Assembly (NCBI RefSeq): GCF_058153355.1 | Contig: NZ_CM177019.1 | Strand: one strand, 5' to 3' | DNA: 64,000 nucleotides | Part shown: piece by piece, positions 12,001 to 15,000 of the stretch | Layout: every line of letters begins with the position of its first letter | Numbering within the stretch: the first letter of the stretch is position 1 | Position numbers: made by a program

Positions 12001-15000
12001 TCATGTTAAGAATGGCGATTTTGGTGATAAAACCGGCGTAATTCTGGGCCATGAAGGCATCGGTGTAGTGGCAGAAGTTGGCCCCGGCGTTACCTCATTA
12101 AAACCAGGCGATCGCGCCAGCGTGGCGTGGTTTTACGAAGGTTGCGGTCATTGCGAATACTGTAACAGCGGCAACGAAACGCTCTGCCGTTCAGTAAAAA
12201 ATGCCGGATACAGCGTTGATGGCGGCATGGCGGAAGAGTGCATCGTGGTCGCCGATTACGCGGTTAAAGTGCCGGATGGCCTGGACTCCGCGGCGGCCAG
12301 CAGCATTACCTGCGCGGGTGTCACCACCTACAAAGCAGTAAAACTGTCAAAAATTCGTCCAGGACAGTGGATTGCTATCTACGGTCTTGGCGGTTTGGGC
12401 AACCTCGCCCTGCAATACGCGAAAAATGTCTTTAATGCCAAAGTGATCGCCATTGATGTCAATGATGAGCAGTTGAAACTGGCAACCGAAATGGGTGCTG
12501 ATTTAGCGATTAACTCACGCACCGAAGACGCCGCCAAAATTGTGCAGGAGAAAACCGGTGGCGCTCACGCAGCGGTGGTGACCGCGGTAGCTAAAGCTGC
12601 GTTTAACTCAGCGGTCGATGCCGTTCGTGCAGGCGGTCGTGTTGTGGCTGTCGGTCTGCCGCCGGAGTCTATGAGCCTGGACATCCCACGGCTGGTGCTG
12701 GATGGTATTGAAGTGGTCGGTTCGCTGGTCGGCACGCGCCAGGATCTAACCGAAGCCTTCCAGTTTGCCGCCGAAGGTAAAGTGGTGCCAAAAGTTGCCC
12801 TGCGTCCGTTAGCGGACATCAACACCATCTTTACTGAGATGGAAGAAGGCAAAATCCGTGGCCGTATGGTGATTGATTTCCGTCGCTAAGAGGCCTTTGC
12901 TGCGACTGCCATGTTTGAGTCGCAGCCTGTTTTGCGAGACGCTTTCCGCAATTTCACTCTTCTTCTTTTCCTCCCCCATCTTTCCTCTCACAATTCACGA
13001 AAACGTAGCGAAATTTGTTGCGCTGCACGGAACAATAGTGATAGTGTTCCTTTCGAAGGAACAAGGATGAAGAGATGATAATGAATTTCAGACACAAGGG
13101 ATTGCGTGACTTGTTTCTTCTCGGCAAAACCTCCGGCGTTATACCGACGCAAATCAAACGATTACGCCACCGACTCGCTGTGATTGATGCAGCAAGCTGT
13201 CTTGCTGATATCGATATGCCCGGTTACCGACTACACCCGTTAAGCGGCGATCGCGATGGAATTTGGGCGATATCTGTCTCGGGCAACTGGCGAATCACAT
13301 TTGAATTCGTCAATGGCGATGCATACATACTGGATTACGAGGACTATCACTGATGAAAATGGCCAATCATCCCCGCCCGGGGGACATTATTCAGGAATCA
13401 CTGGACGAGCTGAACGTCAGCCTGCGCGAGTTTGCCAGAGCAATGGAAATTGCGCCCTCAACGGCAAGCCGATTGCTGACCGGAAAAGCGGCATTGACGC
13501 CAGAAATGGCAATTAAACTTTCCGTGGTGATCGGCAGTTCGCCGCAAATGTGGCTGAATCTGCAAAACGCCTGGAGTCTGGCAGAGGCAGAAAAAACGGT
13601 AGATGTGTCGCGACTACGCCGTCTGGTTACGCAATAAAAAAATGGCGCCTTTTACAGCGCCATTTTCAGCTTAAAGTTCAAAAGAGATTATATCCCTTCT
13701 TCACTCTCTTTTTTCGCTTCTGCCTTTTCGATTTCACGATACCAGCGTGGATGGTGTTTCTTCGCCCAACGACGGCTCACCTTCCCTTCGATCATCCCTT
13801 TAATCGACCCTTTCACCCAGAATGCCATATACATATGGATCAGGATGGCGTGGATCAGGATGATACCCGCAGCCGCGTGAATAAACAGGCTATAACGGAC
13901 AACCTGTATCGGGAAGTACTGCGCAAAGTACGGACGCCAGATAATCACCCCGGTCACCAGCAGCACGAAAATCATGCTCATGATCGACCAGAACATCATC
14001 TTTTGCCCGGCGTTGTACTTACCAACATCCGCCACTTTGTGTTCATTGCCTTTTAATACTTCGACAATGTTCAACAGCCACGGAATATCTTTCTTATCCG
14101 GGATGTTGTGATGCACAAAACGCACAAACATAAACATCAGCGCGACGAAAATCGCAATGCCGAAGAACGGGTGCAAAATGCGTCCCATCTGCGGCGTACC
14201 GAAGGTTTGTGTCAGCCATTGCAGCGTCGGGAAGAAGAACGAAATCCCGGACAGCGCTACCAGGAAGAAGCAAATCACCACGGTCCAGTGACAGGCGCGA
14301 TCAATAAACTTGGTGCGCACAATCATTTTCGACTTACTCATGATGATCCTCCTCGTCATCGTCCACTTCCTTATTCGGGCCAATACCGATGTAGTGGAAA
14401 ATTAACCCGGCAAAAGTGGCGATAAAGCCAGCCGCTGCCAGCGGTTTCAACGCGCCTTTCCACAGATTTACCGATGTATCGATCTTCGGATCTTTCGGCA
14501 GACCGTGATACAGCTCCGGCTGATCGGCGTGATGCAGCACGTACATGACGTGCGTACCACCGACCCCTTCCGGGTTGTAGACGCCAGCATGTTCGTAACC
14601 ACGCGCTTTCAGTTTCGCCACGCGCTGTTCCGCCAGCTCCAGCATCTCCTTCTTGGTGCCGAAGTGGATAGCCCCGGTCGGACAAGTTTTCACACAAGCC
14701 GGTTCCTGACCAACGCTGACGCGATCGACGCAGAGTGTGCATTTATATACCCGGTTATCCTCTTTGTTGAGGCGTGGAATATTAAACGGACACCCGGCAA
14801 TGCAGTAACCACAGCCGATGCAGTTTTCCGACTGGAAATCGACAATCCCGTTAGCGTACTGAATGATTGCACCAGCAGACGGGCACGCCTTCAGGCAGCC
14901 CGGATCTTCACAGTGCATACAACCGTCTTTACGGATCAGCCACTCCAGCTTGCCGTTCTGTTCGGTTTCGCTAAAGCGCATCACCGTCCAGGACTTGGCG

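Follow-up and report, generated by a model that had tools for sequence, protein, structure and literature searches.

Is the small locus between adhP and fdnI of Escherichia a complete toxin-antitoxin operon, and what does yddM, the gene known from this place in E. coli K-12, then represent? We analysed a window of 64,000 nucleotides (nt), a single-strand stretch of contig NZ_CM177019.1 from assembly GCF_058153355.1, in which coordinates are counted from the first letter. The gene order in the window is maeA, adhP, an open reading frame (ORF) of 92 amino acids (aa) and yddM, followed on the opposite strand by fdnI, fdnH and fdnG. The 92-aa ORF (13075-13353, + strand) is an intact toxin gene of the HigB family (RelE fold), hereafter higB, and yddM, or higA (13353-13637, + strand), codes for a 94-aa protein with an XRE-type helix-turn-helix (HTH) domain that is predicted to act as antitoxin and repressor. 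The higB stop codon TGA (13351-13353) and the yddM start codon ATG (13353-13355) share one nucleotide in the sequence TGATG. A first-pass annotation of this DNA had proposed the ORF, this overlap and the toxin-first order, and all are seen in the sequence, with the termini of the ORF exactly as quoted. A Shine-Dalgarno-like AAGGA (13063-13067, + strand), 7 nt 5' of the higB ATG, may be the ribosome-binding site of the toxin gene. The locus, which lies on the chromosome between adhP and fdnI, is very probably a type II toxin-antitoxin operon of the same kind as HigB-HigA of Rts1. This assignment is carried by the family memberships of both proteins, by the conserved catalytic residues and most of the DNA-contact residues, by the operator layout and by the pattern in the population, all of which were observed directly. 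Every feature of membership that can be examined in silico was found at the locus, save two of the seven DNA-contact residues.

The 92-aa protein matched Pfam PF05015, HigB-like_toxin, over residues 4-92 and profile positions 2-91 of 91 (E 1.4e-17), and this was the only Pfam family that it matched at E <= 0.01. The profile search suggested in the first-pass annotation was therefore positive, with 64.4 bits for a cut-off of 27. The likeness to Rts1-type HigB noted in that annotation extends over the full length of the protein: the alignment with Rts1 HigB (PDB 4MCT), a toxin with solved structures on the ribosome, covers residues 1-92 without a gap, with 51 of 92 residues identical (55%) and an E value of 1.2e-31. 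His54, Asp90, Tyr91 and His92 of Rts1 HigB, each of which restores growth when replaced by alanine (PMC5027501), are all four identical and at the same positions in the 92-aa ORF. Substituting Arg48, Lys52, Lys57, Arg60 or Asn71 of Rts1 HigB does not restore growth (PMC5027501), and the differences R48M and K57S fall on residues that are individually non-essential in Rts1. By homology, HigB of the window would be a ribosome-dependent mRNA endonuclease that uses His54, Asp90, Tyr91 and His92.

Existing labels suggest another function, that of a ParE-type gyrase poison. The RefSeq entry for the same ORF, WP_000605673.1, has the generic name RelE/ParE family toxin; the locus is described in the literature as "ParE-2/HigA-2", and a study of adherent-invasive E. 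coli listed the NRG857c homologue as 'ParE_toxin superfamily, ParE-2', paired with HigA-2 (PMC7232551). Such a label, given at the level of the superfamily, spans both folds and does not assign a function, the closest solved relatives of the toxin are all HigB RNases, and the RNase catalytic residues are present. We rejected the ParE identity, which is most improbable, because the Pfam search returned no ParE_toxin profile match at E <= 0.01, only HigB-like_toxin. In the NCBIfam search of the toxin no HigB-specific model was matched, and the RelE/StbE model (TIGR02385) gave a partial score of 17.8 bits, below its cut-off of 27.9.

YddM scored 93.7 bits against the NCBIfam equivalog model TIGR02607, antidote_HigA (cut-off 47.7), and 39.1 bits against Pfam HTH_3 (cut-off 23). 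It is 100% identical to the protein deposited as 'antitoxin higa' in PDB 2ICP and 2ICT, the source of the 2ICP structure being E. coli CFT073 (PMC6987408), and the window and K-12 encode the same YddM protein, WP_000781370.1. With Rts1 HigA it shares 41% identity over 81 residues. In the structures of Rts1 HigA bound to its operator, Arg40 makes the only base-specific DNA contact (PMC12266136). We compared the DNA-contact residues Ser23, Thr34, Ala36, Thr37, Ser39, Arg40 and Lys45 of Rts1 HigA (PMC12266136), and five of the seven, Ser23, Thr37, Ser39, Arg40 and Lys45, are kept in YddM. A YddM dimer would be expected, from homology, to bind HigB and neutralise it.

Two candidate operators lie upstream of higB. 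O1 (13016-13034) is an imperfect 19-bp inverted repeat, TGTTGC-N7-GGAACA, over the -35-like hexamer TTGCGC (13018-13023, + strand), and O2 (13045-13063) is a perfect inverted repeat, TGTTCC-N7-GGAACA, with 8-bp arms TGTTCCTT/AAGGAACA, directly after the -10-like GATAGT (13040-13045, + strand), which lies between the two. The first-pass annotation had read GGAACA-(ATAGTG)2-TGTTCC and a further GGAACA as an autoregulatory operator. These words are all present, GGAACA at 13029-13034, ATAGTG twice at 13035-13046, TGTTCC at 13045-13050 and GGAACA at 13058-13063, but not as one palindrome with a 12-nt spacer: a search for GGAACA-N12-TGTTCC gave no match, because the second ATAGTG overlaps TGTTCC by 2 nt and the spacer is 10 nt, not 12. 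A fourth half-site, TGTTGC (13016-13021), had been overlooked; with it the words resolve into a pair of 19-mers, each TGTTSC-N7-GGAACA. With up to one mismatch allowed, the window has no match to this pattern besides O1 and O2, which count as 4 strand-matches against 0.83 expected; 4 matches were reached by 3 of 100 shuffles. An autoregulatory operator is plausible from the sequence, but it is better parsed as an O1/O2 pair matching the layout of the Rts1 promoter Phig, and this pairing is the one favoured by the comparison with Rts1 and other plasmid loci.

For this comparison, the 100 nt before the higB start in Rts1 and in seven other plasmid higBA loci were lined up with the window. Two 19-mers, T[G/A]TT.C-N7-G.AA[C/T]A, were found in the window, Rts1, Pantoea, Salmonella and the Plautia symbiont, at about -60 and about -30 from the higB ATG and 29-30 bp apart, with a TATAGT-like -10 between them. 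The distance from the start of O1 to the start of O2 is 29 bp in the window and 30 bp in Rts1, where O1 and O2 overlap the -35 and -10 and are bound by HigA and by HigB-HigA (PMC12266136). The Providencia plasmid higBA has an equivalent layout with the outer base changed, and those of the Vibrio and Erwinia plasmids have one 19-mer site each. The Acinetobacter plasmid does not count as a separate example, since over these 100 nt it has the same sequence as Pantoea. TTGCGC, which a 16-nt spacer separates from GATAGT, would correspond by its position to the -35 of Rts1 Phig (TTGCAC-17-TATAGT), and GATAGT aligned with the TATAGT/TATAAT of Rts1, Pantoea and Salmonella; GATAGT does not differ in K-12 or in the loci assigned to other Escherichia species. 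The 76-nt operator/promoter stretch is nearly invariant over the Escherichia loci compared, and in K-12 genomic SELEX (systematic evolution of ligands by exponential enrichment) placed an RpoD-holoenzyme site in the adhP-yddM spacer (PMC3946193). By homology, a single promoter, TTGCGC-16-GATAGT, would be predicted to drive higB and then yddM, with translation of the two genes probably coupled via the TGATG overlap, and YddM, alone or in complex with HigB, would bind O1 over the -35 and O2 after the -10 and so repress the operon. Within the O2 spacer, the base at window position 13057 is A, as it is in the loci assigned to other Escherichia species; the closest relative and the four further toxin-bearing E. 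coli loci that were compared have G there. The half-sites are not affected.

In K-12 BW25113, yddM stands alone, 145 bp after adhP; the first-pass annotation was correct in giving it as the only named gene at this place. Its suggestion that the toxin might be unannotated or absent in K-12 can be narrowed to the second: essentially the whole of higB is gone, and the K-12 toxin is deleted, not merely unannotated. O1, GATAGT and O2 are kept, with the last base of O2 altered. According to a 2020 paper, the antitoxin is all that K-12 and HS have at this locus (PMC7232551). A microhomology, ATGAA at 13081-13085 and 13353-13357, would yield a deletion of 272 bp; in K-12, the 21 nt that separate O2 from the yddM ATG align to the higB leader or to its 3' end no better than shuffled sequence, so the deletion junction is ambiguous and we dropped this assignment of exact breakpoints.

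We counted the alleles in 5426 complete E. coli genomes. The yddM region is present in 5413 of them and toxin DNA in 1330, and a probe for the K-12-type junction matched at full length in 3820. A second allele, recognised by an 81-nt probe at >=99% identity, was found in 545 genomes, about 545 of the 1330 that bear toxin DNA. It is a frameshift by deletion of one nucleotide, the G at window position 13172, after codon 32, and occurs in ZH063 and in O25b:H4-ST131 (sequence type 131); the ZH063 copy (401-678 of locus L006) is flagged as a pseudogene in RefSeq. Intact toxin is present in at most about 785 genomes (14%), the window copy among them. Nissle 1917 has an intact higB, as does S88, judged by a probe match without the 1-nt deletion, and the literature places the intact toxin in CFT073 and NRG857c (PMC7232551). 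Two rarer alleles were noted. In JA0265 (401-670 of locus L008), whose record describes the strain as a spontaneous mutant, a 9-bp in-frame deletion (window 13149-13157) removes the toxin residues QVK, 26-28. In O157:H7 TR01 (about 460-547 of locus L021), O1 and AATAAT join directly onto the final ~55 nt of higB, with loss of O2 and most of higB; this deletion is distinct from the K-12 type and is a one-off among the genomes counted.

The pair is old at this site. The exact toxin protein is recorded on 841 contigs, and relatives with >=90% identity are entered under the names E. marmotae, E. albertii and E. fergusonii. The contigs encoding those relatives keep the order maeA-adhP-higB-higA-fdnI unchanged, and from this identical synteny we conclude that the higB-yddM pair is ancestral at the adhP-fdnI site in Escherichia and that the K-12 state is a derived loss. 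Later, higB was deleted from most E. coli, K-12 included, and these strains retain the promoter, the operators and a YddM that has not changed; in an ST131-type lineage higB was inactivated by the 1-nt frameshift.

The two genes differ strongly in their divergence. The YddM protein is identical in the window, K-12, Nissle 1917, ST131 ZH063, KC-Dl-1 and JA0265, whether the toxin is intact, frameshifted or deleted, although the genes have 7-14 synonymous differences. Over the species-level loci it shows 0-1 amino-acid change at a synonymous divergence (dS) of 0.06-0.30, with a ratio of nonsynonymous to synonymous divergence (dN/dS) of 0-0.02. For higB, dN/dS was 0.09-0.29 in 7 of 10 pairwise comparisons, 0.58 in one and undefined in one that had no synonymous change. 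The pairwise differences came to 36.5 nonsynonymous vs 53.5 synonymous for higB, and 4 vs 127 for yddM. These patterns point to constraint on higB, far weaker than that on YddM.

A side observation concerns the synonymous sites alone, whose divergence is much lower in higB (13075-13353) than in the adjoining yddM (13353-13637). Against an E. marmotae-assigned locus, higB has 0 synonymous and 4 nonsynonymous differences and yddM 12 and 0 (Fisher p = 0.0003 on the synonymous counts); against Nissle 1917, the figures are 2 and 2 for higB and 14 and 0 for yddM. Recent coalescence of the toxin haplotype, horizontal re-spread and constraint on synonymous sites are possible explanations.

The higB ORF could be intact and its product attenuated or inactive, a decaying remnant kept by linkage to a strongly selected yddM. 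The several independent losses of the toxin (the deletion, the ST131 frameshift and, possibly, the JA0265 in-frame deletion) fit such decay, as does the excess of amino-acid changes in higB, and yddM was not reported as variably essential in a CRISPR interference (CRISPRi) panel that included B2 strains. Attenuation is possible, because the toxin is dispensable, repeatedly lost and richer in amino-acid changes than YddM; we nevertheless hold it to be unlikely, as the four essential catalytic residues are all conserved, the R48M and K57S changes touch residues that are individually non-essential in Rts1 HigB (PMC5027501), and contigs assigned to four species of Escherichia keep a full-length higB ORF, dN/dS being mostly 0.1-0.3.

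The invariance of YddM raises a further possibility, which is compatible with a HigB-HigA operon: that YddM is mainly a host transcription factor or an anti-addiction factor, and the toxin an accessory passenger. YddM is present in 5413 of the 5426 genomes and an intact toxin in at most ~785; the protein does not change with the state of the toxin, nor by more than one residue between the Escherichia species loci. For K-12 YddM there are binding data from chromatin immunoprecipitation with exonuclease digestion (ChIP-exo) and reported regulatory and genetic interactions, and a phenotype has been reported for the Keio yddM deletion, not complemented. The operators kept in K-12 fit simple autoregulation equally well, and cross-protection by YddM is uncertain, because no plasmid HigB homologue found in Escherichia exceeds 58% identity with this toxin. 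We take such a primary role as conceivable but doubtful. With slightly more reserve still, we consider that the function of YddM might be selected without its own toxin, as a regulator of other genes or as anti-addiction immunity against plasmid Rts1-type HigB, and that the toxin segment might re-spread by homologous recombination, a suggestion prompted by the unusually low synonymous divergence. If true, a toxin-independent role would explain why YddM stayed nearly invariant after at least two independent inactivations of the toxin.

Several observations weigh against a working HigB-HigA operon and have to be set beside those that favour it. Among the DNA-contact residues, Thr34 of Rts1 HigA is replaced by Ala in YddM and Ala36 by Ser, and the operator half-site words are unlike those of Rts1, TGTT(C/G)C here and TATT(A/G)CA there. 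A generic sigma-70 scan called no promoter in this region, TTGCGC/GATAGT included, so the promoter is assigned by homology to Rts1 Phig. The toxin is dispensable and repeatedly lost, being deleted in ~3820 of 5426 genomes and frameshifted in ~545, and amino-acid changes are commoner in it than in YddM. In the literature searched we found no experiment on the toxicity of this particular HigB. When core genes were studied by CRISPRi in 18 E. coli strains, the conserved antitoxin highlighted for its variable essentiality was ybaQ (bioRxiv 10.1101/2020.05.25.114553); yddM goes without mention there, which is an absence of mention only. One published result was set aside: the higBA deletion of Norton & Mulvey in CFT073 could not be tied to the adhP-fdnI locus and probably concerns the locus at the ygjNM site, because the text calls the CFT073 toxin-antitoxin loci syntenic with their K-12 counterparts.

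The higB-yddM unit is bracketed by two hairpins, both found by folding. The first (12899-12926, + strand), 3' of adhP, has the form GCUGCGACU-N10-AGUCGCAGC, then CUGUUUUG; it folds with -15.9 kcal/mol (z = -2.3), is conserved in K-12 and may be a terminator that forms the upstream boundary of the module. The second (13639-13666, both strands) lies between the convergent yddM and fdnI genes, flanked by an A-run and a U-run, and folds with -14.1 kcal/mol on the + strand (z = -4.6) and -17.3 on the - strand (z = -4.2), an equally good fold being obtained in 0 of 200 shuffles; it is probably a bidirectional terminator. A generic terminator scan gave a sole terminator-like site at 13733-13751, inside fdnI. 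The yddM-fdnI spacer is variable in length, with 50 bp in the window (13638-13687), 228 bp in KC-Dl-1 (2249-2476 of locus L003) and 406 bp in K-12 (1791-2196 of locus L001), and contigs assigned to E. albertii carry between higA and fdnI a 158-aa NUDIX-family gene (3068-3544 of loci L017 and L018) that neither the window nor the other Escherichia loci have.

Further from the module, the Rfam model SECIS_3 matched the - strand at 17638-17696 with 84.3 bits, at the in-frame UGA of fdnG; this is the expected selenocysteine insertion element of formate dehydrogenase-N, and its position at that codon is the reason why the ORF list splits fdnG at 17642. On the other side, the stretch 10551-12889 (the 3' part of maeA plus adhP) has no match of >=99% in any complete E. 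coli genome, the best being 98.6% and about half of the genomes reaching only 90-95%. The higBA segment, unlike maeA-adhP, is 99.8% identical to strain 2020CK-00188. The window comes from an under-sampled or mosaic Escherichia lineage, with maeA-adhP unusually polymorphic.

As a discovery the locus is of little value: it is an ordinary HigBA module with both genes already annotated in RefSeq and the structure of the antitoxin in the PDB as HigA. What is added here is a corrected operator anatomy, the recognition of K-12 yddM as the orphan of a deleted toxin with its operators, a three-state picture of the population (intact, frameshifted and deleted), and the extreme conservation of YddM. The reading of ChIP and perturbation data on YddM in K-12 should be guided by its being the orphaned repressor/antitoxin of a deleted HigB. 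The natural series of intact, ST131-frameshifted and deleted states also suits the question of why orphan antitoxins persist.

Among known systems, the closest is HigB-HigA of the Proteus vulgaris plasmid Rts1 (PDB 4MCT, 4MCX, 4YPB and 6CHV), which has, like the window, a 92-aa toxin, 55% identical without gaps, with H54, D90, Y91 and H92 in common. The toxin-first order with a 1-nt overlap is common to the window, Rts1 and six other plasmid loci; both antitoxins have an N-terminal XRE-HTH domain with Arg40, and both operons have a pair of 19-bp inverted-repeat operators, 29-30 bp apart, one over the -35 and the other directly after the -10. In contrast, Rts1 is a conjugative plasmid and the window locus is chromosomal, fixed at adhP-fdnI; the antitoxin has 94 aa here and 104 aa in Rts1, with 41% identity only, and the half-sites differ (TATT(A/G)CA in Rts1, TGTT(C/G)C in the window). 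Toxicity and DNA binding are predicted here by analogy. GraT-GraA of Pseudomonas putida (PDB 6F8S) has the same gene order, and its toxin is HigB-like (E 3e-7) and its antitoxin HigA-like (E 2e-11), but it is far more distant, and GraT is a derepressor via its disordered N-terminus, a variant of which the window shows no sign. The ybaQ/higB-1 pair of E. coli (Rousset et al., bioRxiv 10.1101/2020.05.25.114553) likewise joins a core HigA-type HTH antitoxin to a clade-restricted upstream HigB, and its toxin, like higB here, was lost in K-12 and most phylogroups and is a pseudogene in some strains. It lies at another locus and its proteins are different ones; for ybaQ, experiments have demonstrated antitoxin essentiality and toxin derepression, and we found no yddM equivalent of these experiments in the literature searched. 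The HigB-HigA pair of K-12, ygjN-ygjM, has the same family name and the same toxin-first order as the window, but belongs to a different branch, with the HTH at the C-terminus of K-12 HigA (PMC6987408), and no K-12 HigBA chain was among the PDB sequence matches of the two window proteins at E <= 0.01. Its distribution is the reverse of that of the window locus, since ygjN-ygjM is intact in K-12 and is reported as an orphan higA in CFT073 and NRG857c (PMC7232551).

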